A DNA stretch of 64,000 nucleotides from Convolutriloba macropyga (Eukaryota): assembly GCF_964194025.1 (NCBI RefSeq), contig NC_134471.1:45694001-45758000 (forward strand), in the 5' to 3' direction. Both the position numbers and the translations under genes were made by a program. Below, piece after piece: positions 1 through 33,103 of the stretch; the first letter of the stretch is position 1, and every line of letters begins with the position of its first letter. The notes under the pieces were generated by a model that was given only the letters and a program-made list of their open reading frames with translations, was not told where the DNA came from and made no database searches.

Positions 1-26
1 AATACTTAAATAGCATTGCAGCAGCG

Positions 27-1400
27 ATGATGTTTATTAGTGGCAAAGAACCCGTAAATAAACCAGGACATCACCAATGGAAAGTAAAAAGAGCAGCTTT
101 AATTTTACATACTTTACTAGGACCAGCTCAAAAGTGGTACTCCACTCTACCAAGTGAAACAAAACTGGATTGGGAAATATTCTGCAAAGAATTCTCAGAC
201 ATATTCGATTCAGAGAAATCAAAAAAACAAGCGAAAATAAAGTTACAACAACTACAGAAACATACGAATGAATCCCTACGATCATTAGCATTACGAATTG
301 GAACATTAGTAAAAACAGCATATTCACTCTATACAGAGGACTATAGAAATAGTGTAATGAACCAAACATTTATCAGATGCTTGGACAACGAAATAAAAAC
401 ATCAGCTTTGAAGAAACATGCAAACCATAAACAAACGCCCAGAGAACCAGAAATGCCATTCAAAACATTAGTCGATAAAATTGACCAGATGGACTTAACA
501 AGAACAATAACTAATAATCATAAAAGATTATATGAATTCAACCAAACTACGTCAAATAACAACGAAAATCTCAAACAAATGAACGCAGCTTGTAACAATA
601 TTAACGATCTAAACCAGAATGACCTGGAACAGTTTGAAGGAGCAATCTGTAACTTTCTTAACGGAATTAACAACACATATGATAGAAAAAACTTGGAAGA
701 CCGAAGTTTGCACTATTTTGCAGCTATTGCAGCTCTTATGGACACAAAAAAGGCAGATGCTTTAAAAGACCACGACGAGAAAGCATTACACGACCAAAAG
801 AAAAGTCATTCTATGGACACATGAGAAATAACCAGAAGCTACCAAATAGAAAAATTGATTCAAACAATGTTAATGAACAAGCACGAAGCAGAACAACATA
901 TAGATCACAATCACGAAATGGATACTGCAATAATCCCATTAGTAAATATAACAGAAATCAACAAGATTTCAGAAATTTTTACAGAAATAACAATGATAGA
1001 AGTGGCAGCTATAATAGAATCAATTATAATAGAAGTAGAACTAATAGCTACAATACAAACAGTAATTATAACAGATACGACAATAGTAGATCAAACTCGA
1101 GATATTCGAACCGTAGTTTTTCAAGACAAAATTCACCATACAACAGAAGTAATAACAATAACTACAACAACAATAAATATAACAGACAAAGAAACTTTCG
1201 CAGAGACTGAAACAGAAGTGATAGATATAGACAACGATCAAATAGTAACAATAGACATTATTCTTACAATAACAGAGACAATAGAACAAGTTCATCAAAT
1301 AGAGAACAAAACAATAGATACCAACCAAGAGATCGCAGTAAAGACGGAAACAGTTACAATAGCTACAATAAAAACAGAATAAACAACATAGAAGGACAAA
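27..1400 (+). pseudogene. gag: gag: capsid-like region, CCHC zinc knuckle and R/S/N/Y-rich nucleocapsid tail
   Basis: ORF 27-824 has gag-like segments (AQKWYSTLP..DWEIFCKEFSDIF, QTFIRCL). After a frameshift near 690, frame 2 reads CSYCSSYGHKKGRC (CX2CX4HX4C, 719-760) and runs into the RSNSRY-rich ORF 821-1210. The TGA at 1208 is a point stop; the frame continues beyond it. Confidence 0.9.
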
Positions 1401-1589
1401 CACAAAATGATGATCCACCTGGAATAGATGAGAACGAGTACTCATCAGAATCATCTAATGAAGACCAAGAAATATTAGATAAATTTTACAACGCAAACGA
1501 AGACACATGCAATACCGTAATAAATACACTAGAAAGCAACCATACCTGGATATTACCGATGTACCAATATAACAAACTAGAACAAGATT

Positions 1590-2921
1590 GTACTAAGCAG
1601 AAACCAATACTCGAAATCGATTTCCTATTATATTCTGGAGCAACATAGAACCTCTTGAACGAAGATACATGGAACGAGATAAAATACAACAACCCAGAAA
1701 TACAACTCGAAAAAGCTAACAAAACACTTACAGCAGCAAATAATATCACCATAGAAACATTCGGGACAGTAACACTTAATTTAACACCAGAACGAACGTC
1801 GAACAGCAGAAATAAACTTCAACAAAACTTTAATATCTATTTTTATATAACACAATGCAATCATAACATTCTGGGAACCCCGTTCTTCGAAGAATATATA
1901 GAAACCATTAATGTGAACACAAATAAACTAACAGTAAATAACTTTATAGATAACAATATTACTTTCTTTATGAACAGAACAAAAGGATATCCCTACTATT
2001 CTAGATTATACCCAATCTTCAATAGAGAACCAATGTACTTTGAGGAAAACCAGCACGAATGCATTACCTTTCCAATACCAATTGTCAATGAAATGGAACC
2101 ATCAAGTGGAAAAACATTTAATAAATCATTCTACTTTTTTGAACCGATAAACAGATACCAAAACTTATCATTCACAGATATAAAAGATCTCTCACTAGAA
2201 AAAGAACACTTTATCGACATATTTCTAATCAACAAAAATCAACATAAAATAACAATCAACACTGGATTACTCGGCTTTATATAACATTCTGGGAACCCCG
2301 TTCTTCGAAGAATATATAGAAACCATGAATGTGAACACAAATAAACTAACAGTAAATACCTTTATAGATAACCATATTACTTTCTTTATGAACAGAACAA
2401 AAGGATATCCCTACTATTCTAGATTATACCCAATCTTCAATAGAGAACCAATGTACTTTGAGGAAAACCAGCACGAATGCATTACCTTTCCAATACCAAT
2501 TGTCAATGAAATGGAACCATCAAGTGGAAAAACATTTAATAAATCATTCTACTTTTTTGAACCGATAAACAAATACCAAAACTTATCATTCACAGATATA
2601 AAAGATCTCTCACTAGAAAAAGAACACTTTATCGACATATTTCTAATCAACAAAAATCAACATAAAATAACAATCAACACTGGATTACTCGGCTTTATAT
2701 ATCAAAACATCACTTTTAGAAAGCACAACGAAGAAATGTACCAAACAAACTCAATAGACTTATTTGCAGTATTATACCATTTAATATACGAAAACGAAAA
2801 CGATATCAATGAAATTTTAAATATACAAGACAATGAAACAATTGAACAAGTCGCAACATTTGAAGGAAAACCTAATTTCAAATGCAAACTCAATATTAAC
2901 AAATGCACGGAAACAGAGTAA
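1590..2921 (+). pseudogene. Aspartic protease (inactivated) and PR-RT spacer
   Basis: IDFLLYSGAT*NLL at 1616-1657: catalytic DSG mutated to YSG, stop at 1646. The C-terminal ILGTPF motif is near 1868. Same frame as gag. Confidence 0.85.
1863..2698 (+). repeat. 418-bp tandem duplication inside pol
   Basis: ataacattctgggaacccc begins at both 1863 and 2281. The two copies differ by only about 4 substitutions. Confidence 0.95.
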
Positions 2922-2933
2922 GAATTCATCCAA

Positions 2934-4400
2934 ATGTTTGATTTTCAGCACCCATATTTAACACAAGAAGAATTGGAAAAAGTAGTATCAATCATATTAG
3001 AATACAAACAAGTTTACGCAACAACAAAGTTTTACGTCGGAAAAACTAAAGTAAAACTGAACCTACCAATGAAAAAAGATGCAATCTTTAAAAAACAAAG
3101 AATCACTAAAGTACCGATACAAATTCGAGAACAAATTCAAAAACTACTCGATGTATTAAAAAAATACGCCATAATTGCACCTGTCAATAAAGAAAAACTA
3201 TCAACGGGAAATATCTTCACAAACCCCGTAATAATACTACGAAAAAGAGAATCCTTAAAGATCGTATTGGACGCTCGATACTTGAATAGCATGATAGATG
3301 AATCCAAATGCAATTGGCCCATTGAACCTGTTGACGTGGCACTAACACGAATAAACGGAACAATATTTACAACAGCTGATCTCAATAGTGCGTACAACCA
3401 GATACCACTAGATGAACAATCAATGAGATACACTCATTTCACAATCGGCAATGAACAATATTGCTTGAAACGATTTTTTTATGCAATATCAATAGGACCT
3501 GCAGCCTTTGCATCAGTACTAACACACTCTCTTTACCCCTTAATCAGAAAAGGAACAGTAATCACCTATGTCGATGACATTTTTATCCAAACAAACTCGT
3601 ACGAACAGATGTATGAAACACTGATAGAATATCAAAAAAATACTATTGAAGAAAACCTTAAAGCAGCACCTGATAAAACGTATTTCATGCTAAAAAAAGT
3701 CAAATTTCTAGGACACATTATAGAAGACAAGAAAGTAAAACCACTAACTTCAAGAATTGATGGTTTCCAAAAACTGGAACCACCAACAAGTATGAAAGCA
3801 CTCCAAAGATACCTCGGAACAATAAACTTTCTTGCAAAATATATCTACGGCATGCAACCATTACTACAACCATTATATAACCTTCTACACAAAGAAAGTG
3901 ATTTCAAATGGACAAAAGAACATCAAACAATTTTCGAACAAATGAAAAGAACAAAAACACACAATTTAGAGTTAACAATGCCAGATACTACGAAACCCTT
4001 CTACATAGTAACAGATGCTTCGAATACAGGCATAGGCGCAGCATTACTACAACAACAACCAACTGAGAAGAAAATGAGATTATTCTCAGCGAATTCAAGA
4101 CTATTCACACCTATAGAAATGCGACTATCCACACTAATTCGAGAATGTTCAGCAATAATAGTCTCTCTAACAGAATATGAATTCTTGCTAACAGGCTAAA
4201 ACCATCCAATTGTATTATTTACTGATCACAAACCGATCATTTACCTCTTCACTCAGAAAAAAAAACCTAGCAATAGAGTCTACAGATTTCAACTCATTCT
4301 AATGAAATTTCCAAATTTACACATTGTTTGGACAGAGGGAAAAAACCTAGCACTCCCCGATCTTCTGAGTAGAACAATTGATGAAGAACATATTACTAAA
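2934..4400 (+). pseudogene. pol: Reverse transcriptase and RNase H
   Basis: VLDARYLN, DLNSAYNQI, ITYVDDIFI, VKFLGH, IVTDAS. After the stop at 4197 the frame continues with FTDHKP and LPDLLSR. Confidence 0.97.
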
Positions 4401-5109
4401 ACTCGTGATATAACAGTGGAAATACCAGAAAACATAGTTTTTCTTCGCGAAAACACCTTTTGCAAATAACCTAGAATGCAAATACAGCTTATGTAACAAC
4501 ACAAATGACACAAAAAGTCACAAAAAACACACCACCCAGTATTAGCAAACATACATAACATTTATTTCGAGATAAACATCGATAAAAACGAATATTGTCC
4601 AATTTCAATCGAAAAATACAATACCGAAACTAAAACCAATTTAGTACCAAAATATAAACCAAAAATAAAAAACTGGCAATCTCCAATAGTAGAAAAAAAC
4701 GATCTCATTATTGGGAAAAACCAAAAAGGACCCTATACAACACATCACGATAATGACTACCTAAGACTGATCAATAACATAAACTTAAAAACAAAACAAC
4801 AACAAAATTACGAAAACACGAAAATATCAGATATCTTCTGTGACGAAAAAACAAAAGTAACTGAAGAATTAATAAGAGAAACAAAAATATTAGATCTTGT
4901 ACTTCATAAAGTAAAAATGTGGAAAAAACATAACAATAAACCGCACTCAGTAACAATGGAAATACGTGGAAACAAAGGACTATTCCCATACTTTAGAAAG
5001 TTTAAATCAATAATAGTTGATGAACGATCTGGAATAATCAAAATAATCATAATCATACACAAAAAAATCGACACAAAGAATCTGTTTACCATTGACATTG
5101 GTACTCTGT

Positions 5110-6407
5110 AAATTCTATGAGAACCATTGCATTGACCTAGTAGGTCACACAGGCCTTGAAAAAACAAAACGTAAAATAATGGACAAAATACTGTTTTCCA
5201 AACCTCAATACTTGGCTAAAAATAATAATAGCTGATTGTATACAATGGCAAACAAACAAAGTGTTTGCCAATACGAGAACAAAAAGCAAACAAGAACAAT
5301 TAGCCACAACAAAAACATATTTCAACGAAATGATAATGGTCGACACAAAAGGACCAATCCACCCAACTTCTGAAGAAAAAAACTATATCTTCGTGATAGT
5401 TGATGCAATTTCACATTACGTAACGATAAGGTGTGCACCAAAAAATAACGCACATTACGCATTCACAGCATTATTCAAACATTGGTTCATGAAATTCGGA
5501 CTACTCGTAGAAATTAGATCGGATAACGGATCAGAATACATTAACACAGAAGTAACACACCTTTGTAACTATTTTGAAATCAAATTCAAACCCTGTACAA
5601 CCTATGAACCCTGGACCAACGGTCTAGTAGAAGGAACAATTAGAATAATTGGACAAATTGTTCGAACTTTATTACAGGATAAATACAATAATTGGTCACA
5701 GAAAGCAAAATTTTTCCCCTACGCATATAATACACAATACCAAACAAGATTAGGTATGTCACCATATAAAGTTGTTTTTAACCAAAAACAACGAAAGTCA
5801 ACAAAGATAAAACTTGGAACAACAACAGATGAGATGGGAAACTGCAACCCAACTGAAACAATTACATGTAACACACAACCAACACACACCCATTTAGAAA
5901 AACATTTTAGTCACCCAAAAATTGCAAACCTTCAGAAAGGAACATTTGCCAAATGGTTCCTAAACAAAGAAAAACACTACAATGAAACATATAAAACGAT
6001 AACCTAAATTCTACAAAACAGAAAAAAATTAACGGATAAAATAAATCTTAGATTCAGAACAGCAAAACCACTCGAGAAAAATACTTTTGCATTAGTAACA
6101 AATCAACAACAAGTTGATGGAGTTTATAAAAAAAACTTTTACCTCTAAAAACAGGACCTTATCTTATCATCGATAAGCCCACGGAAACAACATACATACT
6201 AAAAGATAACAATAAAGAACAAATAACAATACACGGAAATCACATTGTACCATACTACCCTAAAGAAAAACATATAAAGTTGGAACTACAAAACTATCTT
6301 CCTACAAAAAAAATACCAATATTGAAACAACCACACGAAAAAGTTAAACGAGAACGAGCAATACAACAATCAGATGAACCGAAAAATCATCAATATAATC
6401 TTCGCAA
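5110..6407 (+). pseudogene. Integrase (decayed HHCC region, DDE core, C-terminal region)
   Basis: H..GHTG near 5125-5155; CIQW (C2 mutated) near 5236; MVDTKGP, IRSDNGSEY, NGLVE, AYNT..LGMSPY. Ends in YNLR just before the gap. Confidence 0.95.
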
Positions 6408-6661
6408 NNNNNNNNNNNNNNNNNNNNNNNNNNNNNNNNNNNNNNNNNNNNNNNNNNNNNNNNNNNNNNNNNNNNNNNNNNNNNNNNNNNNNNNNNNNNN
6501 NNNNNNNNNNNNNNNNNNNNNNNNNNNNNNNNNNNNNNNNNNNNNNNNNNNNNNNNNNNNNNNNNNNNNNNNNNNNNNNNNNNNNNNNNNNNNNNNNNNN
6601 NNNNNNNNNNNNNNNNNNNNNNNNNNNNNNNNNNNNNNNNNNNNNNNNNNNNNNNNNNNNN
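6408..6661. other. Assembly gap
   Basis: Run of N. Confidence 1.
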
Positions 6662-9600
6662 AATAATGAGAAGAATAATAACTATAACAATAATCAGACT
6701 GACCTTAAATTGCTACATAATATAACACTATATAAATGCTTCATATTCTGATAATGTTCACCCAATATTATACTATAATACACCTATCCACAACTCGACT
6801 ACTATATTCAATACGGAACTAATTTCGAATACATCATCCTACTTTTAATCAATACTTTATCCTTTTGAAGCATCCAGTACTCTACTACTTTGTTAACATC
6901 CAGTATTCTATTACATACAGTACTTTATTACACTTGCACACTTCACTAACCCGAAAATTGTGTGCATACCTCCAGAATATTAGAAAAATAAAGTAAAAAG
7001 ACACATTATTGAATGAAAACATTAATATACAAATTGGAATACAAATGAAAACAAAAGCACATCAAAACTAAAAGGTGTTAACAACCACCTAACCTCTAAC
7101 CTCTATAATCTATGTCGACTAGCAACTATGTGAATAAGTACCAAGTTTATAAAACAAAATGTTACTAAACCATGTTACTAAACAATGTTCAATGAATAAC
7201 AGTTTAAAACAAACAAAATTTAATAGATTAACGATATGCATTAACACCTTCTAGTGAAACAAGATATAAAAACGATATTAATATAAACGAATACTACTCT
7301 TTCAACAATCAAATGACAAACTGAACTAACACCGTCTTCACCAACATTGTCCACCATCATCTTCCTCTTCCACTCTCTTCTTTCACCACCTTCACCAACA
7401 TTGTTCACCATCATCTTACTTATTCACCATCACCATCCATATTGCATAACAAATAAACAAATGACAACAAATTCAAATAACAAACCGAATCTCCAGACAG
7501 GATATACTAATACTAATAGGTTTTGATAGTAGCCCTTGGAATCACCACTAATGAATGGAAAAAAGGGTCTCATGTAAACAATGAAATCAAAACACAAAAT
7601 AATCAAAAAACAAATGGTATCATGTTGTTCACAAGCTTGGAACTGGAAGAGACATCATGAAATTGTCAACATTACAAACAATAAACAATCCATCAAACAA
7701 TTAAAACAATCTAACAACAAATAAAACCCAATAACCGTATGCCCTCACGTTCGAGGATTCACGGAATGGAATAGATACTTTGAAGAAGTTAAAGTTGCAA
7801 AAGAACAGTAAACAACGTACACACAAAAGTAAAATTGCAAACTAACAAGAGTAAATTCAATAACCGAGTAAACCCTGTTACAACAACAATTAGTAAAGAA
7901 CAAGGAAATAAATAATAAAACGGAAGTTAACACATAAAATATAAGACGAATAACCGTTTACGTGTAAATTCCTGTAGATAACTTCCTGTAGATAACAATT
8001 CAAGTAACAACGAAGTTCTGTAACCGTGAACAGTTATAACATACAAAGTGCTATATAAAACACACGCTATAATATAACTGTCGATTAGTTAGATCGTAAA
8101 GCAACCGTATAACGACGCCCATGTAAACGTAACAAGTCACGTATACATCCGCTAATATACATCTTTTCCACACATCTCTGCCAACTCACATCTCTAATTG
8201 ACACATAAATCCACTATCTAAAACACATACGATTTAACATGTTTTTATGACAGTTCACACCGTCTATGTCAGTTAACAAACCTATAATGACATTCTTCCA
8301 TGCATTCACCCATACAGACATTCTTACATGTATTCTAATACATAATAGTGGAAATGCATACCACCAGAAAACATTAATAACCATTCCAATAACAATATTG
8401 ATAACATCATTCTTAAATTACACAGTTCGTCTCATCGGTCGGACAACTTTCGACTACATAGATGGATTCGGCTATATGAACACTTGTACAAGAACTACAA
8501 GTGTACGTCATAAAATTTTGAATACGTCACAACCTCTATAAGTTATAAAACAAACGGACGTTAAATCCAAAGACTGACGTCATTATAAACCAACGGACGT
8601 CATCTCGAACCAATGCCATCACACTCATTAGTACCTCATTAGTACCTTCATTAGCAAAAGAAAACCGATGATCGAAAGTAACAAGGACCCATTAACAAAG
8701 CAAAAGAAATTGACACAAACAAGAAAAAGACAACCTGACAATCTTTTTATACCTTCATAGTTGAAGAGATTTAAGAACAAATTATAGGGACTTAGCATTT
8801 CCCTGCAAACGCAATTAGTAACAAAAAGATAATGTCATACCCATTAACAATTGCAACACCATGAACGAGATGGTGAGTACCATGATAGATCTGACGAAGA
8901 TCAATTAGCAGTTGAGGTTATCACTTCGATTGTACAAAAATCAATTTGAAGTTGACAAAACTATCGAATAACCAATTAACTTTTGCACCACACTACTTAG
9001 TAACAAATTACCTTCTCCATCAAGTTATTAGTAACAATCAAAGTTGACGCCACAAGACACCTATTGATTAACGGAAAACTTGAAAATAAATGTTAACGAG
9101 TAAATAGACAACATAATTAGACTAACTACCATAATCATACCATGACGAAAGCACGTCATTATACCATCAAACATACCAATTACAGGAGAAAAACAATCAC
9201 ATAACAAAGTTAAGGAAACTTCAAACGAATCGTGTAATTCTAAAACTTCGACACTCCAGAAACTAATTAGATCCCAAAAATTGTGAAATTATCAACTTCA
9301 AGAAACAAACAAGAAAAACGGAAGACATCTAAATGTCAGGAGAATTGTAAAAAGCAACAGAAAGTAAAACAGAAATTATTACAACGATTTTTGTCTCGTA
9401 CAGATCACTACCTCAGTAAAACTTGAATATTTTGAAAATCTCAGCTAAGCTGAAAACACAAAACAAAACTTGTTATACTCAGACAGAAAAATTTCATAAC
9501 TTCATTTCTAAAATAACATTCTTTCTGACTTGCCTCAGATTTTAATAACTTTCTAAAATTTTGATCCTCAATTCCATGGCCAACCTGTATTGTCACACTA

Positions 9601-9882
9601 CATTCAAACGAATTCAATTCATTTTGAAATTTTCTTTTCAGTAAAAACTCAAATCATTTCTATAAACCGATAAACCGATAAACTCCAATTTTTCAGACAG
9701 TTATAACAAATTTGTTTCTTTTGTCATCAACCATTCTCCACAAAACATTTCAACAACAAAAGATAAACCGAATTATTTCAATTTTATTTCTGAGAAACTA
9801 ATTCACCATTATAGCCTTCACTCTAATGAAGTACCACACATGCTTAGTGTATCACAGTTTATGCAATCACAGTTATTTGTTT

Positions 9883-10143
9883 CACAATTATTTGTTTATA
9901 TTGGAAGGTAAAACTGAAACTGGACAAGAAATAAAACTTTTTTGGTGAGAACAACATTTTGAATTACTCAAGAACACAGCACCTTGCACCGAAACAATTA
10001 CGGAATTTGAAACGCTGAAACAATTAATTAACACAGATAGGTGTGTTGATATAAACAAACTACATACAGTTTTTCTAGTAGTTTGCAAAAAAGAAGCTAT
10101 AGAATTGTTAGACGATAAACTAAAAGAAGAGAACCATACATGA
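9883..10143 (+). pseudogene. Remnant of an unknown accessory ORF
   Basis: Protein-like frame HNYLFILEGKTETGQEIKLFW*EQHFELLKN...DDKLKEENHT with one internal stop. No recognisable motif. Confidence 0.35.
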
Positions 10144-10690
10144 TACCTATTATAGTCATAGTTGTGTATCTATAGAAGCACAAGAACTTGCTAGTGCGGC
10201 ACCTTTACGTGTCAGTTACATTAGTAGATAACTGTCACTTTGCAGTGGAGCATTGTATACAAAACAAATTTTGCAAAACAATTTCACATTTAAATAAAGT
10301 TACGATATAACATACTATCACACACACGCACTTCCTACAAAACAATTAATACAAACAAAAACACAGTAATTTCAGTTTCAAAAATTTATTTCCCAGACGC
10401 ATTAATAGCAAGATACATACAATTATCTAAAATAATATTCTTCCTAACTATCTTTCTAGTACCCTGCATAGTTGTTATTTCTACGTACTTAGCAATAGTA
10501 ACAATAAACGAAGTTATCAGAAACCGTAGAGTTATCTATGCAAGTCCACCAGTACAATAATACAGTAACAACTAATGAACGAAATTCACACCGATATATA
10601 CCATATATGTAAAACCAATACAGATAATATAGAACTAGAAATTTTTAAATTCATTAAAGTTGCACTCCTAATTTATTTCTTCCTTCGCAT

Positions 10691-12126
10691 GTGTTTAGGT
10701 TTAATAGAATATTTCATGAACCTATAATAATTGATCCTATCTCAGATATAGAAGAATCAATATATTACAGGCTACACTACCAAAAATTCTATTTACAAAT
10801 AAGATTCCCTGAAAATTCACCATTACACGGCAGCGTTATTATTTATCAATTAAATCTTCGCCTAGAAAATAACGAAATTTGCATATATAATCTAGGAGCA
10901 CAAACACAGCCACCACAACAAGAACTTATACCACTAATAATACTAGCACCATCATACATTCAACTTCCCTCACACGGACCTAGTTCAGGAGCACGAATAT
11001 AATCCGCAAAAATTGCGTCATCAAACAATAACCATAGTAACAACAATAACAATCAAGAAAGACCACATCATAACGAAGTCACAGATTTAGCAAATATACC
11101 AACATCCCCGGAAGTAGATGATAATTTAAACCCAGGAAACGAAAATCCATACACTGTACGGCGAGACTGCCCCGAAAGAAGAGACCTCTTAAGAGCACGA
11201 CGTAGATCTTCTTTATCATTTCCAACACAAGATTCAACATTAGTTTCAGATGGTTCAACAGATATTGATTCCACCATAATTAGACCTATAGAAGCAGGAC
11301 AGTCAGAACCTCCAAGTAGAACTGGAACACCAACATTGCGCAAATTTAGTATAGGTTCACCAAGTGATAATTCGGCTTATAATACAATCAGAACACCAAC
11401 ACCATCCGAAATAAGAGCAAACCCCTTCTTACCACCTACATTCCAACAAAGACAAAACTTTAACTTTGTTCAAGAACAGTTCCGAGTACAACCACTACAG
11501 TCACCAAGTAGCTCACTCTTGTCAGCAACATCACCACAATCCGCAAGTACTAGCTCAACACCACGAAGAGCAAATCAAACTTCATCATCAAACACATCAG
11601 TAAGTATAGCAAGAGTCGATCTGACAGACTCCTTACAACCACCGAGGAATACAGCTTTATCCCCAGCGTCATTTATACCAGAAATAAGACTTCAATTAAG
11701 CCATCCTGGTAGAACACGATCAAGACCAATACTAAACCCAAACCCAACCACTCGAAGTAGGACTAATGAACACACATATCTTTTTGCATTAGATCACAAA
11801 AGTTGGAATCCACCACTACCACTATACGGACCCACTAATTTAGGAGACACACTTACAAACTGGTCACGAAATAGATTAATTAACACCCTTGAAGTCTTAG
11901 CAAATCCAAGTCTATAACTCAAATTTAACACTACAATAAAATACGACACTATCTTTAAACATCCATTTCATGCAACTACACCATCGATAATAACAACTAC
12001 GACCCAGCACCTTTTATTTGCACTGATTTTATATATAAAGTTGACAGATAGAAAAAACAAACATTAGGATTTGCAACATTCTATAATCCACACACCGGTT
12101 TATCAGATACATGTCGCTTCAGTTAA
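10691..12126 (+). pseudogene. Accessory ORF upstream of env: S/T/P-rich middle and conserved C-terminal domain
   Basis: ORFs 10691-11002 and 11336-11917 are in one frame. The C-terminus (GDTLTNWSRNRL..HATTPS..FICT..PHTGLS..C) is conserved in the inverted copy at 30951-31216. Confidence 0.7.
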
Positions 12127-13230
12127 AAGCCATAATACTAATATTGTTATTAATAATAACATACATTTACATGAATATAGAAACAAAAACACAATTAGAA
12201 CACAGACTAAATAACCGTGTTAAACAACGTATCAAGGATCGTATAAAAGAAAGAATGGCAGTACAGATAAAAAAATTTCTAAACAAAAACAAAGCAATAA
12301 ATACAAATACATTATACACATTCAACTAGGAGAAATTCAATAACCTTGAAAAACATATATTGAACAATAACACCAAATTTAAAACTAATCCACAATATTT
12401 CACCTATGACACCATAATAAAAGAACTAGAAGAGTTTAAAAACAGTTCAGACTACGAAGCAATGTGGGAAATAGCCATTCATAAATGGACACGAAATTGG
12501 AATTTCTATAGAGAACAATTAACAAACAGTATAATAGAGAAATTCAAGATGAACAATAAAAGACAAAAAAGACAAGCAAAAGTAGACTTTGTAGAACTAA
12601 CAGGACAAAACATTAATGGCTCTGCAACTGGACCACAAGACGTCTTCATAGAACATTACGATTGCGATGCAGAAGAAATTACTAATGTTAAGTATTATGA
12701 ACTAAACAAAATTAGTACATGTAAATTCAAACCACTCGATTTAGATTTGACAAAAACCGAAGTACAACTATTATCAAAAGCACAAGCAGTAGAAATAAAA
12801 GCGTACGCAGTTATTGGAACAATCAAAGAACGCGTGGAATGGTGTTCACAACACACTGATTATCTTAGAGCTAACATACCTAGTTATTACGTCTCAGATG
12901 CACGAAGAACAAAACTATTAGATGCAGATGAAGTTTGAAACGAACTCGCTAGAATTAACCTCCTAAAAACACAAAATATAAACCAACACGATATAATATT
13001 TCATTTAAATACATAGCAAACCCACCACTTCAGAAAAAGATCGAAGACATGCAAGGCAGAATACAATTTGAATTTGATACTCCTATTGTACCCGATGTGG
13101 ATACCAAATGAAATTTAAAATGCTTTGTCAAACTGCAAGAAAGGACCAAGAAAACAAAACAGAATAGATATACTAGATTAGACATTAGAAATAAAAGAAG
13201 TATCATTAATACTAAACTTGGACACTGAAG
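12111..13230 (+). pseudogene. env: Envelope glycoprotein, N-terminal part, class III fusogen-like (chuvirus/Monjiviricetes G-like)
   Basis: Hydrophobic N-terminus (AIILILLLIITYIY), furin-type RQKR, then HYDC..NVKYYELNKISTC..EVQLLS..IKERVEWCSQH. The spacing matches the remembered YDC..C..IQLLQ..R..YC..H pattern of chuvirus-type glycoproteins. Stops and a deletion are present. Confidence 0.7.
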
Positions 13231-13269
13231 AAACATCAAATATGGGAACAAGCACATTCGATCACCTAG

Positions 13270-13910
13270 TAGCAAAAGCATCTCAGGATCTCTCAGCATA
13301 TAGCGTATTTGAACACGAAATTTTCCAACTTAGTTTCAACTTTCTCCATTCCACTCCAAAAGATGTACATAACAATAACTTTCGTGTACATGAAAACAAA
13401 CTGATCCACAATATGATCTAGCACACCTTCTTCTTCAGAGATAAAGAGCCTTATACAGATAAAAGCTACATCTATATCAATGATCATTTAACATCCCCCT
13501 ACTTTCTGATTTATGGATATAAACTGAAATGGGAACACATCATTGGAACACTCCGAAATTTTGACCCCATAAATAATTATTACATCTTCCTACCTAAGGA
13601 TTCACCTGAAAAACCCTTGATGGTACCTCTCGAGGCACTTGAACGTTGCGAAGAGTACCATACATATCATTTAGAAGGAAGCGTAACAAACAGAGCTTTC
13701 AGTAACAGTACTCAATATAACAATGAACGAAAAGCAACAGATCTTGAAAAAGAGCTAAGGAAGACTGTAAAAGCTTCGATTACGGAAACAAAAATCAACG
13801 AAGTCACTGACCTGTTGGCGTACTTTCTCTCACATGATGAACATTTTGTAAAGGAGTATAAACATTACAGAAATCGGAATAGCCATCCTCAGCAAACAGA
13901 GAAATTGTAA
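13270..13910 (+). pseudogene. Accessory ORF remnant downstream of env
   Basis: Open frame from about 13488 to 13910 (LTSPYFLIYGYKLKWEHIIGTLRNFDP..PLMVPLEAL..), preceded by a frameshifted segment. Confidence 0.5.
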
Positions 13911-14959: not shown

Positions 14960-16300
14960 ATTATTTGGAATGTTGAAATACATTATGTCGTATCCGGCGA
15001 ACAATTATAAAATAAGCGCGCAGACAGATACTTTTACTAAATTTAGAAGTATGAAATAACCACTAATAGGAATCAGGCGATGGGACATTTTTGTCCACAC
15101 ACATTAATCCTATAACCGTGTTCCAAAACCTTTACTAAATTTAAACAATACAGAAACCATTATCAAACTTACAACATTTACAGATTCGATAAACGCTTCG
15201 TATAACATAACCGTAACAACTAACAAAACCACAAAACTGTAGAAGTATGATGAAGCAGTCTGTACGGACTAAATTCATCAGAATAAATCATGAGTCCGGG
15301 AGACATTAATTGAAATAATACATGTTCTTATCCAATAACATAATCCAAAATGGCAGAAAAATCACAAGTCACTATACCGTTTGTTATGAAAAAAGGAAAT
15401 AACTTTTCGTTGTTGTCAACAACCTTCATGTTGTTACTCACCCAACTACACTCGATTTTTCCATCGAATTTCATATAACATTTAGAACAAAGGTTTTATT
15501 TTTTTTTACAACCGGAAGTGAAACTACGTAATAACAGAACATTAATACCGCCTAACATGATAGGCTAAATCGAAAAAATTCTGAACATCTAACAGCTAAC
15601 ATAAGCAAACAAAAAGAATTCAGGTAAGTCAGGTAAGTCACTGGACATCAGGATCGCCTTCGACATCAACATCGGGCCTACCCAAAAGGATCTTCATCCA
15701 CTGGAAGTGGTACTGGAATAGATACTTTTGTGGTTGTCGATGTTCACTCCTTGCTACGTGGGCAACCTATGTCTAGGAATTGACCGACTGACAAACCGGC
15801 GAAAGCGCAGCACACTCAACAAAAAGAAAAGAAATTCCTCCAAAGAGATTAAAGAGAAATTGAAAGTAGTACTCACAAAAACTTCTAAAAAACTTAAACC
15901 CCGGAAAAATGGAGTCAATGTTGACTTCCGACAAAGAAGATTTGAAGACTTTAATATTTAAATAAATAAAGACTGAAAATACTCTGGTTAAAATAGAAGA
16001 AATACCTTTCCTCCGATGCTTAACTAGTTTCCCTTACACACAACTGTTTAGTTGGTACCGATCAGAGTCATACACAAACCTGATATAATAATAAAGTATA
16101 TTTCTCTCTCTCTCTACTCCGCTCTTGTTTTGTATTGAGATATAAGTTAGACTTTAGCAATGGGGCCCGTGCACTGTCTACTGAAGCTCAGATAGAAGAG
16201 TAGCAGACTAGAGATATAGAACTTCAGTTAGTCAGGTAAGATACTATAAGACCTCAGTAGAGTAACCTCTCAGGGTAACCCTACTCGGGACACGTCTTAA
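14960..16300 (+). repeat. Putative 3' LTR-like terminal region
   Basis: Short purine run near 14954, AATAAA at 15961 and near 16090, a (CT)n tract and a terminal hairpin at 16256-16287. The last ~230 bp resemble the inverted remnant at 51567-55513. No 5' LTR is available for comparison. Confidence 0.35.
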
Positions 16301-28037: not shown

Positions 28038-29958
28038 AATTACTTCCACGTAAAGGGCTTTGCGCTGATTATGAGCCACCTCCCATAGCCAAGGTTCTTA
28101 GCAGTTTCACGCAAAAATTTTTGATTTGTGATACTAAAAGTGCAACGACTTGAGTATGGAAGTAGAGTGCCACTAAGGAATTCGATTGTGCCAAATCAAT
28201 CTCCTGTTACGTGACATTTATGATAAATAAAAGAAAAGTAAATCAATCTTTTGTTGTGTTAGAGTAGTCTTTTGCATAGAATCCACTTTATATCCTGCCA
28301 GATAACAACCTTCGATGATAAACTGAGATCTTTTTTTGGATCTTGTTGGGGCGCAGTAATAACTAGTGTACTGTAGAAATGAAATGAAGTTTGACGGAAT
28401 GCATGATGAATTGCTAGAGTTAAGAATTGTCCCTAGTCGATGGTGGCAATTTCATATTCAATTTTGCCCTCACAAAATAACACGTTGTCGTTTGTTGGTA
28501 TTGTCAATGACAAAAGTTTTGTTGAAGGATTCTGGATATCATGAAATGAAACTAAGTCTGTCATTACTTATTCTCAGGGTACTAAAAATATGTGCAATCG
28601 TTTGTCTAACATGATTGGTATAGAGTTTAACAAGATTATACTGTTGGCACAAAAAACTGGGCGGAAACTCTTGACGTCAGCGTATAAATCTGATAACAAT
28701 AATGCTACTGTGTTGAAATTTAATTTTCATTGCTGATATGCAAAAAAGCATATCTGTACAATCTGGTAACATCCCAATGTTTTTTCGAAAGTATCGAATT
28801 GATCTTGGACTACCCCAGCATTTGTTTTCCCTCCTTTTCTTCACTTGTTCGCAGAGAGACATCGTTTGCATTCCATAATTTCTTTAAATTTGTAAGAAAT
28901 CAGTTTCTAAACTATTTAAATTCTTCTTCGTGAAGGGCTTTGGGCTCATTATGAGCCACATCTCATAGCCAAGGTTCTTAGCTGTTTCATGCAAAAATTT
29001 TTTTTGATTTGTGATACTAAGAGTGCAACGACTTGAGTATGGAAGTAGAGTGCCGCTAAGGGAGTCGATTGTGGCAAATCAGTCTCCTGTTTCGTGACCT
29101 ATGGGATAAATAAAAGAACACAGACAATTATAAAGCTTTTGTTGTGTTAGAGTAGTCTTTTGCATAGAATCCGGCTTATATCCTGCCAAATAAGGACCTT
29201 CGCTGATCAATTGAGGTCTTCTTTTGGATCTTGTTGGGGCGCTGTAATGACTAGTGTACTGCAGAAAAGAAAAAAAAATTGTCGGAAAGCAAGATGAATT
29301 GATAGAGTTAAGAATAATCCCTAATCAATGGTGGCATTTCATAATCAATTTTGCCGTCACAAAATGACATGTTGCCGTTGGTTGGTATTGCCAATGGCAA
29401 AAGGTTTATTGAGGGTTTCTGGATATCATGAACTGAAACTAAGTCTGCCATTAATTATTCTCAGGGTACTAAAAATATGGGCAATCGTTTTTCTAACATG
29501 ATTGGTATAGAGTTTAACAAGATTATACTGTTGGCACATAAAGCTGGGCGGCAATTCTTGACGTCAGCGTATAAATCTGATAACAATGATGCTACTGTGT
29601 TGGAATTTAGGTTTCCTTGTTGATTTGCAAAAAAGCATATTTGTACAATCTTGTAACATTCCAATATTTTTTCGAAACTATCGAATTGATCTGGAATTAC
29701 CCCAGCTTTTGTTTTCCCTCCATTTCTTCACTTGCTAGCAGAGAGATGTCGTTTACATTCCATCATTCCTTTAAATTTGTTGGAAATAGGTTTCTAAACT
29801 TTTTAAATTTTTTTCGTGAAGGGCTTTGCGCTCATTATGAGCCACATCCCATAGCCAAGATTCTTCGCGTTTCACGCAAAACCTTTTCTGGTTTGTGATA
29901 GTAAATGTGCAACGACTGGAGTATGGAAGTAGACTGCCGCTAAGGAAGTTGATTGAGC
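28038..29958 (-). repeat. Further ~890-bp F-like env repeat units
   Basis: Units start near 28038, 28922 and 29810. ORF 29461-29664 reads FANQQ..LLSDLYADVK..LLNSIPIMLEKRLPIFLVP. Confidence 0.8.
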
Positions 29959-29959
29959 T

Positions 29960-31216
29960 TCATAAGTCCAGTCAAGTATATCTACTCGATTTTGTTTTTA
30001 CGTTCTTTTAGACATTGTGATTGTGGATTGGTAGCTGCTGTAGGTATCCACGTGGGCTTAGTACAGTCATATACTATTCTCCCATATGCTGGTACCATAT
30101 GTGTATTAATGTTGAATTGAATTCTTCGTTGACCTTCTTCTAATCTTTTTGATAATTGAGGGTTATCTAAGTAATTAAATGAGATGTTATAGTTTGTTGG
30201 TTTGTATTTTGTATCTTGTATTAGGTTAATTATAGCAAGTTCGCTTCTTTGTTCATATGCGTCCAAGATTTTTATTCTTCGAGCGTCTCAAAGTAACTTG
30301 TTTTATAAGCTCTAACGTAGTCGGTGTGTTGTGAACACCATTCTACTCTTTCTTTTTTTGTTCATGTTACAGCAAAGGCTTTTATTTTAACTGCTCGTGC
30401 TTTAGATAATAATTGTACTTCAGTTTTTGTCATTTCTAGGTCTAATGGTTTAATTATACATGTACTGATTTTGTTTAGCTCGTAAAATTTGACGTTGCTG
30501 ATCTAATATGAATGTCTTGTGGTCCTGTTACAGAACCGTTTGCGTTTTGGCTTGTTAATTCTATTAAGTCTATAATTGTTTGTTGACGTTGTTATTTTCG
30601 GTTCAAGTAAAGTTTTGATAAAATACTATCGGTTAGTTTTTCTCGATAGACATTCCAATTATGTGTCCAATTGTCTATTGCTATATCCCACATTGCTTCA
30701 TAATCTGTATCATTTTTAATTACTTCAAGTTCTTTGACCTTGGTTTCGTGTTGAATTACTGGTTGTTTATAATTGGCTGTCATGTTTTTGCGCCGACTGT
30801 GGTCTTTTATGCGTTCTGTCATACAATAGTTTATACGGTCTTTTACACGTTCTTGAACATGTTTGTTTAATATGTTTTCTAATCTTACTTTTGTTTCTAC
30901 CTTGAAGTATATGTATAATATTGTTAGCGTTAAGATCAATATTATGGCTTTTAGTTGAAAAAACATTTGAACGATAATCCTGTGTGCGGAATAAAAAAGG
31001 ATGAAAATCCTAGTGCTTGCTTTGTGTATCTATCAAATTTATAGATGAATTTGGTACAAATAAATGGTGCTGGTGTGGTTGTTGTTATTACAGATGGTGT
31101 GGTGGCGTGGGATGGTGTCGCTAAAACGTTGAGTGCTGCGTTTCGCTGTCTTGTTGTCAGATTAAAAGTGTTAACTAATCTATTCCTTGACCAATTCGTT
31201 AATGTATCCCCTAAGT
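29960..31216 (-). pseudogene. env: Second, diverged copy of the accessory-ORF C-terminus plus class III-like env N-terminus
   Basis: MFFQLKAIILIL.., DYEAMWDIAI..W..NWN.YRE, TGPQD, NVKFYELNKISTC.IKPLDLEMTKTEVQLLSKA, ERVEWCSQHTDY all align with 12111-13200. Confidence 0.9.
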
Positions 31217-33103
31217 TTTTATTTTACTTTATTAAATTTTTTCAGCATACCTGCATTACGGCCTGATAGCGCAGCGGTGAGTGAATCAGGTTATGTTTCG
31301 GGAGTTCAATGGTTCGAATTCCACCGGGAGCACGTTTTTTCTTACCTAAAAATAACGATGAAAAACGACGATTTCATACAAGTGAAAAACAGAATTCCCC
31401 AACATGGGCCCGTGTTAAGGACAATGACGAAAAAAAACGACAATCTTTTTGTAAGAAATCGTCGTTTTCGTCGTTTTGTCGTCGTTTCCATCTTTTGCAT
31501 TTGTTTCCGTCGCTTAAGTTGTCTCTTAAAAAAAGAAAGGATCGCTTCTTCGTCTTTTTTATAGTTTCTTACGTCGTTTTTTTTTCAAATGAAATCCTCT
31601 ATTTTGTAGTTTTTTACGTCGTTTTTTTTTTCAAATGAAATCGTCGTTTTTGATCGTTTTTACGTTGTTTGTTTTGTCGTTTCTTACGTCGTTTTTTTTT
31701 TCAAAAGAAATTGTCGTTTTTTGATCGTATTCCCGTATAGTTTCATTGCTCTTGAACTAGTTTTCCTCTATTAAATTTCAAATGAAATCATCGTCTTCTG
31801 ATCGTTTTTACGTCGTTTTTTTTGGAAGTTTCTTACGTCGTTTTTTTTTCAAATGAGATCGTCGTTTTTTATTGTCTACGAAAAACGATTAAAAAACGAC
31901 GATTTCTTAGAAGTGAAAAACGAATTTCCTCAATATGGAACCGTGCTGAGGACAACGACGAAGAAACGACAATCATTTTGAAAGAACTCGTCGTTTTTGT
32001 CGTTTTGTTGTCGGTTTCGTCGTTTTGTCGTCGTTTTCTTCTTTTTCATTAGTTTCCGTCGTTCAAGTTGTCTCTTAGGTGTAAGAAGTGATCGTTTTTT
32101 GTCGTTTCTTATGTTGTTTTTTCTCAAAAGAAATCGTCGTTTTTTGATCGTTTCTCCGTAGTTTCATTACTCTTGAACTAGTTTTCCTCTATTAAATCGT
32201 TTTAGCACATCTGTATTTGGGCCTGATAGCGCAGTGGTCAGGAAATCAGTAAGTTATGGGGAGTTCAATGGTTGGAATTCCAGCTGGCTCACATTTTCGT
32301 AGTTTTTTTTTACCAAGCAAACGAAGAAAAAACGATCATTTCCTACATAAAAATAACGACGAATTAACGAACAAAACGACATCTACCATGTAAAGTCTTT
32401 GATCGTTTTTGTCTATTCCTACGTTGTTTTCTCTCAAATAAAAAAGTGGTTTTGATCGTGTTTCCGTAGTTTCATTGCTTTTGAACTAGTTTTGCTCTAT
32501 TAAATAGTTTCAGCATCGCTGCCTTACGGCCTGATAGCGCAGTGGTGAGTGCATCAGGTAACGTATCGGATGTGCATTGGTTCGAATTCCACCGGGGAAC
32601 ACGTTTTTTTCTTACATAAAAATAACGATGAAAAACGATCATGTCCTACATTAAAATAACGACGAAATAACAAAGAAAACGACAACAACCAGTTAAGGGC
32701 TTTGGTAGTTTATTTCTAAGGAAAACGATTAAAAAACGACGATTTCATACAAGTGAAAAACAGAATTCCTCAACATGGGCCCGTGTTGAGGACAACGACG
32801 AAAAATGACAATCTTTTTGTAAGAATTCGTCGTTTTCGTCGTTTTGTTGTCGTTTTCTTCGTTTTGTTGTCGTTTTCTTCGTTTTCATTAGTTTCCGTCG
32901 TTTAAGTCGTTTTTTAGGTTAATAAATGATTGTTTCTTCGTCGTTTTTATTTCAAATGAAATCGTCGTTTTTTCATCGTTTTTTTTCGTCGTTTTTTGTC
33001 GTTTCTTACGTCAATTTTTTGTAAAAGAAATTGTCGTTTTTTGATCGTTTTTTCGTAGTTTCATTGCTCGTGAACTAGTTTTTCCCTATTAAATCGTTTT
33101 AGC

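Follow-up and report, generated by a model that had tools for sequence, protein, structure and literature searches.

A gene preceding env in an animal Ty3/gypsy element avoids AUG and is predicted to start at AUU

ORF6, the open reading frame that directly precedes env in a Ty3/gypsy element of Convolutriloba macropyga, has no AUG start and avoids AUG, the main feature of the gene and one that the initial annotation of the window (the whole stretch of 64,000 nucleotides analysed) had missed. The conservation among copies makes initiation of ORF6 at an AUU codon very probable, and we consider it reasonably likely that the AUU-started ORF6 shares an mRNA with env and that ribosomes reach the env AUG by leaky scanning. 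ORF6 is under purifying selection. The gene had been placed at 11840..12126; a gene is indeed present there, but its extent was wrong, the true start lying ~830 nt further upstream at 11012. In open copies, the peptide first noted is the tail of an ORF6 of 378-389 codons, directly before env, in which a ~250-residue part rich in S, P, T, N, and R is followed by a C-terminal domain of ~125 residues.

The window contains a degraded LTR retrotransposon in which gag, RT, RNase H, and integrase follow the Ty3/gypsy order (Table 1). A search of the 1.18-Gb genome with the peptide gave at least 299 matches among the 150 scored of 1121 candidates, and by its sequence matches the host element has hundreds of copies. 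In the four young copies checked, the LTR pairs were 99.8-100% identical, with TG..TA ends and a 4-bp target-site duplication in all four, and a PBS-like sequence was common to them; membership in Troyka was set aside because of the TG..TA ends with 4-bp duplications. A second family was reached in the same genome via one distant type of ORF6 homologue and is 41% identical to family 1 in the ORF6 C-domain, 31% in env, and 46% in pol. From the locus coordinates of young copies, the element spans ~21 kb in family 1 and ~16.5 kb in family 2, with a pol-env distance of ~5.5 kb and 2.8 kb, respectively. The primer-binding-site sequence is identical in both families despite the low identity of pol (L107:2246-2260; L111, minus strand, after the 5' LTR). 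In both families, env scores above the cut-off of 27 bits for PF24664, a Pfam viral fusion glycoprotein family (54.7 and 50.8 bits), a comparison of env with PDB sequences gave no match, and a search for env homologues returned close relatives only, at 84-99% identity.

Table 1. Positions in the window of the host element, its accessory cassette, and the second copy
Feature	Position	Strand	Remarks
gag-pol of the host Ty3/gypsy element, broken	3..6405	+	Pfam Retrotrans_gag, RVT_1, RT_RNaseH, rve; tblastn; gag start is upstream of the window
Conserved block upstream of the cassette	9314..9400 (end approximate)	+	also at L034:4360-4450
ORF1 remnant, broken here	9768..10143	+	dN/dS 0.20
ORF2, 11-codon hydrophobic short ORF, AUG, conserved	10140..10175	+	
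Conserved non-coding imperfect hairpin, pre-miRNA-like geometry, degenerate here	10189..10257	+	between ORF2 and ORF3
ORF3, 58 codons, hydrophobic, no Met, predicted AUU/AUA/AUC start	10384..10560	+	dN/dS 0.14
ORF4, 50 codons, AUG start, hydrophobic C-terminal half	10575..10727	+	dN/dS 0.07
ORF5, 88-90 codons, no Met here	10730..11002	+	dN/dS 0.16
ORF6, gene of the finding, broken here	11012..12126	+	predicted AUU start at 11012
env, 5' part, class III-type fusion glycoprotein	12111..13250	+	PF24664; tblastn
3' remnant of the ~540-codon ORF following env	13248..13910	+	no Pfam match
3' LTR	15910..16299	+	75% identity to the LTR of a young copy
Second copy, env 5' part, broken	29941..30966	-	tblastn
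Second copy, last ~87 codons of ORF6, 5'-truncated	30951..31217	-	tblastn

Both copies of ORF6 in the window are damaged. In the plus-strand copy, the peptide is split between two frames, with stops at 11915-11917 and 12049-12051 and deletions of 33 nt near 11886 and of 1 nt near 12000, and env is broken and fused to the downstream ORF through an internal deletion. The minus-strand copy has an in-frame deletion and keeps ~87 codons, with a different repeat upstream. That the peptide is retained between these two copies, as had been proposed, was borne out by a dN/dS of 0.066 (20 synonymous vs 9 non-synonymous differences in 43 codons, from three of the four intended blocks, the first block being unmatched). 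Among nine copies, with low-dS pairs dropped, dN/dS was 0.11 for the whole of ORF6, 0.05 for the C-terminal domain, and 0.12 for the first 30 aligned codons counted from the Ile. ORF6 also precedes env in family 2, whose other upstream accessory ORFs are unrelated, and this position in a second family, together with the purifying selection, upholds the earlier view of a real, selected gene coupled to env. In family 2, a stretch of ~120 codons at the start of ORF6 is overprinted by an AUG-started ORF of ~220 codons read in a different frame (L071, minus strand, oriented 5434-6120 / 5730-7055).

Methionine is missing from ORF6 (0 of 2254 residues in six family-1 copies and 0 of 1280 in three family-2 copies, compared with 73 of 3179 in env), and its conservation begins at an Ile codon. 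The start motif was matched with at most two mismatches in 57 of 62 anchored copies; among these 57, the codon was ATT in 56, A stood at -3 in 57, and G stood at +4 in 56, where the filter itself favours ATT, and of the five rows without a match some show evident mutations or deletions. ATT is fixed at this position in 29/29 open copies, which were also chosen with an Ile-containing motif; the remaining 10 Ile columns have ATA or a mixture of codons. The family 2 start reads A-x-A-ATT-G in all seven copies with a located N-terminus, of 20 examined, and A-x-A-ATT-G, with a purine at -3 and G at +4, is thus conserved at the 5' end of ORF6 in both families. Sections of PMC3542737 list AUU, AUA, AUC, CUG, and GUG as known near-cognate starts. 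An in-frame stop lies 4-8 codons 5' of the Ile in 49/57 copies. The spacer from the ORF5 stop to ORF6 occurs in all three phases (31, 8, and 13 of 52), and therefore entry into ORF6 from ORF5, whether by stop readthrough or by a fixed frameshift, was ruled out. CAG is found just 5' of the AUU in most family-1 copies, and only 7 of 52 spacers are without any AG. A stabilizing hairpin downstream of the ORF6 AUU was looked for and none was found.

The 28 open copies (31,781 nt) held two AUGs in frame, 61 in +1, and one in the env frame, counts that overstate the evidence when pooled because the copies are related. Per ~1.1-1.3 kb, 1-3 AUGs were observed in ORF6 versus 7-11 in codon-order shuffles (P 0-0.026 in 8/8 copies), with env and pol at expectation. 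For family 1, the share of synonymous T before G was 0.28 vs 0.64, and no such bias was observed in env, pol, or control codons; with each column counted once, the bias had p=0.02. In family 2, the synonymous AUG bias did not reach significance (p=0.44). One to three out-of-frame AUGs persist, leaving ORF6 strongly depleted of AUG, short of AUG-free, and in one subfamily a residual AUG has A at -3 and opens just a 4-codon ORF. Since avoidance of out-of-frame AUGs matters mainly when ribosomes scan through, the target of the scanning would be env.

The 16-nt overlap with env described in the initial annotation is present in both window copies (ATG 12111 and TAA 12124-12126 on the plus strand; ATG 30966 and TAA 30951-30953 on the minus strand). 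As an exact length, it holds for family 1 (68/72 rows) but not for family 2, where the overlap is 19 nt in 9/10 rows, the row counts including a few copies twice. The env AUG keeps its position over the Thr and Cys codons in the last, conserved strand of ORF6, and the length of the overlap tracks that of the ORF6 tail; dual coding explains the overlap best.

The ORF6 AUU is predicted to be the last of several non-AUG starts in the cassette, and its non-AUG signature recurs in three upstream ORFs, with predicted starts of CUG/GUG for ORF1, AUU/AUA/AUC for ORF3, and AUU for ORF5. In other copies, conservation of ORF1 starts at CTG in 24 and at GTG in two of the 32 anchored rows; this exchange of one near-cognate start for another alters the residue. 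The ORF3 start is ATT, ATA, or ATC in 32/33 rows, and the predicted AUU of ORF5 lies two bases past the ORF4 stop and is ATT in 47/49 rows. ORFs 1, 3, 4, and 5 matched no Pfam family. Homology between these family 1 ORFs and ORFs A and B of family 2 was rejected (hhalign probability <1%), and because ORFs A and B are unalignable with the family 1 ORFs, ORF6 alone is shared before env. In other copies, 305-466 nt free of AUG separate the conserved block upstream of the cassette from the ORF1 start; judging from the place and conservation of the block, it is possibly an internal promoter or a short coding exon. Between pol and the cassette, ~2.7 kb (window 6660-9300; L034:1710-4350) are without long ORFs and appear by eye to have short blocks in common between subfamilies.

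The hairpin between ORF2 and ORF3, found in other copies at L034:5301-5383 and L039:5333-5415, has conserved arms and a variable loop. Its folding z was -4.6, -4.4, -2.7, and -3.0 in four of the five folded copies and -0.5 in the window copy. Covariation was slight, with a two-sided change in only 2 of 22 pairs, and no Rfam family was reached at its gathering score, the best being mir-507 (28 bits, gathering score 79). The hairpin could be a candidate pre-miRNA or instead a shunt or scanning element after ORF2.

We propose that ORF6 and env would be carried on one mRNA, that a minority of ribosomes would start at the ORF6 AUU and most would scan past it, and that these would cross the AUG-poor ORF6 and start at the env AUG. 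On the sequence pattern, leaky scanning through ORF6 to env is likely. The context of the env AUG counts against it, being weak in both families (C at -3, U/C at +4), unlike that of the usual final scanned ORF. A weak context, together with an overlap that is short and fixed within each family, would suit an AUU-started ORF6 with env translated by coupled termination-reinitiation at the overlap, as for calicivirus VP2 and influenza B BM2. We hold such reinitiation to be very unlikely, as it leaves unexplained the avoidance of out-of-frame AUGs over 1.1 kb. The overlap is also unequal in length between the families (16 vs 19 nt), and synonymous sites near it are as variable as elsewhere (0.45-0.47). 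Sections of PMC3542737 give UGGGA as the motif of TURBS termination-reinitiation; none of the 10 copies checked had it at 100 nt or less from the env AUG, and a TURBS element at the ORF6-env junction was rejected on this count.

Alternative splicing from a donor-like site before ORF1 would give each ORF, env included, an mRNA of its own, in which case ORF6 may keep its AUU start or, in some subfamilies, take an AUG from an upstream exon. The site, MAG|GTAA, stands directly 5' of the ORF1 CUG/GUG in 26/32 anchored rows (L034:4762-4772 and equivalents), and an AG found 10-11 nt 5' of the ORF3 start in 29/33 rows, read by eye, suggests some splicing, which may divide the cassette among several mRNAs. 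A pyrimidine tract that ends in CAG is present in family 2, and in family 1 a CAG ~100 nt before the env AUG, kept in 28/28 copies with a pyrimidine share of 0.43, could be a splice acceptor. As the general explanation, splicing is nevertheless unlikely: in-frame stops stand 4-8 codons before the ORF6 Ile, spacers without AG occur in open subfamilies and in family 2, the last ~100 nt before env have no conserved AG, and avoidance of AUG across ORF6 would be needless. GT..AG ends were found at 0 of the 15 joints listed of 20 (four runs, kind unrecorded), a count that speaks neither for nor against splicing. Leaky scanning from an AUU-started ORF6 remains our preferred reading.

A profile search with ORF6 returned at least 53 representative proteins at E<=0.001. 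All 10 of the 53 that were looked up are unnamed, and 32 have <50% identity to family 1 as well as to family 2. Of the 53, three extend into sequence resembling env and one is linked to sequence resembling pol; wherever the context of a homologue is visible, env or pol is adjacent, and most of the distant ones are without context. For the P0074, P0092, and P0110 types, no close copy was found among the scored candidates in the genome (best 39-42% identity or lower). No longer homologues were found in the range of 521-2000 residues, the only one searched, and no relatives were found in IMG/VR or the JGI metagenomes. ORF6 had no match in Pfam, nor did its domain among PDB sequences or in the ESM Atlas. 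The C-domain was modelled with a pLDDT of 80 as two helices and five strands from a 47-sequence alignment, used in place of 14 close copies that gave a pLDDT of 41. Foldseek searches of this model against BFVD and PDB folds gave nothing at E<=0.001, and its best VIA result had a Z of 4.6 and an rmsd of 4.6 over 39 aligned residues. None of these blanks argues for novelty or for a lack of relatives.

By composition only, the N-terminal 250 residues of ORF6 are 17% S, 13% P, and 12% T. PPLY occurs there in 26/27 family 1 and 3/3 family 2 copies, at positions that differ between the families, NPF occurs in 25/27 and 3/3 copies and also upstream of the domain in the distant P0073, and PSAP (3/3) and YPTL (2/3) are found in family 2 only. 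Each of these short motifs has a 7-22% chance of occurring in shuffled sequence, and PPLY is absent from most distant fragments. We take NPF to be an EH-domain motif and PPLY, PSAP, and YPTL to be late-domain motifs. On this reading of the motifs, our best guess, and a tentative one, is that ORF6 may be a cytoplasmic scaffold or adaptor for budding or membrane trafficking that is made with Env. NPF and PPxY in the disordered part would recruit host membrane-trafficking and budding factors, and ORF6 would act like a matrix or late-domain protein, without demonstrated homology to one.

The initial annotation had instead suggested a matrix- or phosphoprotein-like gene co-captured from a donor virus, that is, a mononegaviral or chuviral M or P gene taken up with the glycoprotein. 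The arrangement has some resemblance to such a capture: ORF6 stands directly before a PF24664-type glycoprotein, joins a disordered N-terminal part and late-domain-like motifs to a small C-terminal domain, and is kept with env while other accessory ORFs turn over. Likeness to a matrix protein or phosphoprotein is unsupported by any Pfam, PDB-sequence, Atlas, Foldseek, or VIA match to viral M or P, although blank searches refute nothing, and the element ORFs scanned had no match to the mononegaviral N or L families. Co-capture likewise gained no positive support, in that IMG/VR gave no relative and homologues whose context is visible stand next to env or pol. Sections of PMC13524379 also argue that the env of these elements is ancient rather than recently captured. 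We consider the capture of a viral M or P gene highly improbable.

Ty3/gypsy elements that carry env are known, as sections of PMC13524379 describe, and are usually described as gag-pol-env; here, a recently active lineage has a multi-gene accessory cassette. The elements studied here resemble the surveyed ones in gag-pol-env order, RT-RH-IN arrangement, and class III-type env, and in having young multi-copy insertions with near-identical LTRs. They differ in having several selected ORFs in the 5.5- or 2.8-kb gap between pol and env, an extra ORF after env, and a total of 16-21 kb. According to the portions of PMC13524379 that state its limits, that survey allowed a pol-env gap of <=1000 nt and a total of <=10 kb, and would therefore miss these elements. 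AUG-based annotation and gap-limited surveys in general would miss this accessory cassette.

The closest likeness in layout is to the pregenomic RNA of rice tungro bacilliform virus (RTBV, Caulimoviridae), where ~10% of ribosomes initiate at AUU while the others scan ~900 AUG-free nt (sections of PMC5902531); the AUU start with leaky scanning is also given in a part of PMC3542737. Shared features are an AUU-started ORF, ~1 kb of AUG-poor coding region, a downstream AUG reached by scanning (here predicted), and an upstream short ORF with a hairpin. RTBV, however, is a pararetrovirus of plants that has a single AUU start and lacks internal AUGs, whereas here an animal LTR element has up to four predicted non-AUG starts and 1-3 residual AUGs, and the downstream gene is env. 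With this element, RTBV-style translation could be put to the test in an animal; the strength of the start codon would determine how much accessory protein is made relative to Env.

In rhabdoviruses and filoviruses, the matrix gene directly precedes the glycoprotein gene and encodes a disordered arm with PPxY or PSAP and a compact domain. ORF6 is alike in its position before env and in joining a disordered arm with motifs to a compact domain. It differs in that no sequence or fold match was found in the searches above, its disordered part has 250-300 residues, and the element has a Gag of its own. Drosophila sORF-bearing LTR elements reportedly have extra ORFs, some of them small and hydrophobic. 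Bdelloid LTR retrotransposons with ORF3 types have an extra gene 3' of pol, according to sections of PMC5408684. Like the present elements, both kinds carry additional genes downstream of pol, of which some are small and hydrophobic; as far as these sources go, they have single extra ORFs or no env, whereas here a multi-gene cassette accompanies env. We found no description of such a cassette in the literature searched, which left most subscription journals and Repbase outside its scope.

A broader and rather doubtful reading is that these elements could be complex retrovirus-like animal Ty3/gypsy viruses, with six or seven accessory proteins in addition to Env, a polycistronic cassette with four non-AUG starts, a microRNA of their own, and in ORF6 a separately evolved, matrix-like budding factor of unmatched fold for a class III envelope. 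Apart from this broader reading, ORF6 suggests one way in which such elements might link a class III fusogen to their particles. The C-terminal domain defines a new family of protein domains, with at least 53 clusters.

Several further observations concern the rest of the element and the window. The family 1 gag-pol is a single frame of ~2740 codons, which is unusually long (L109:2285-8200; P0126), and a repeat rich in N, R, S, and Y separates gag from the protease region. Env has a long P/T/N-rich tail past the membrane region, with PPAY and LPPQL-like proline motifs (P0005, residues about 850-1109). The ORF of ~540 codons after env is present in both families (L110:990-2618; L112:3-1667, minus strand), with 32% identity over 250 residues and no Pfam match, and it must need its own mRNA. 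The second copy in the window is interrupted, at about 31220-32500, by a degenerate repeat rich in AAACGACG-like words. This AAACGACG-like repeat recurs over ~12 kb, with ORF-like pieces to about 43400, mostly on the minus strand, and repeats resembling it also match upstream of the window (L115).
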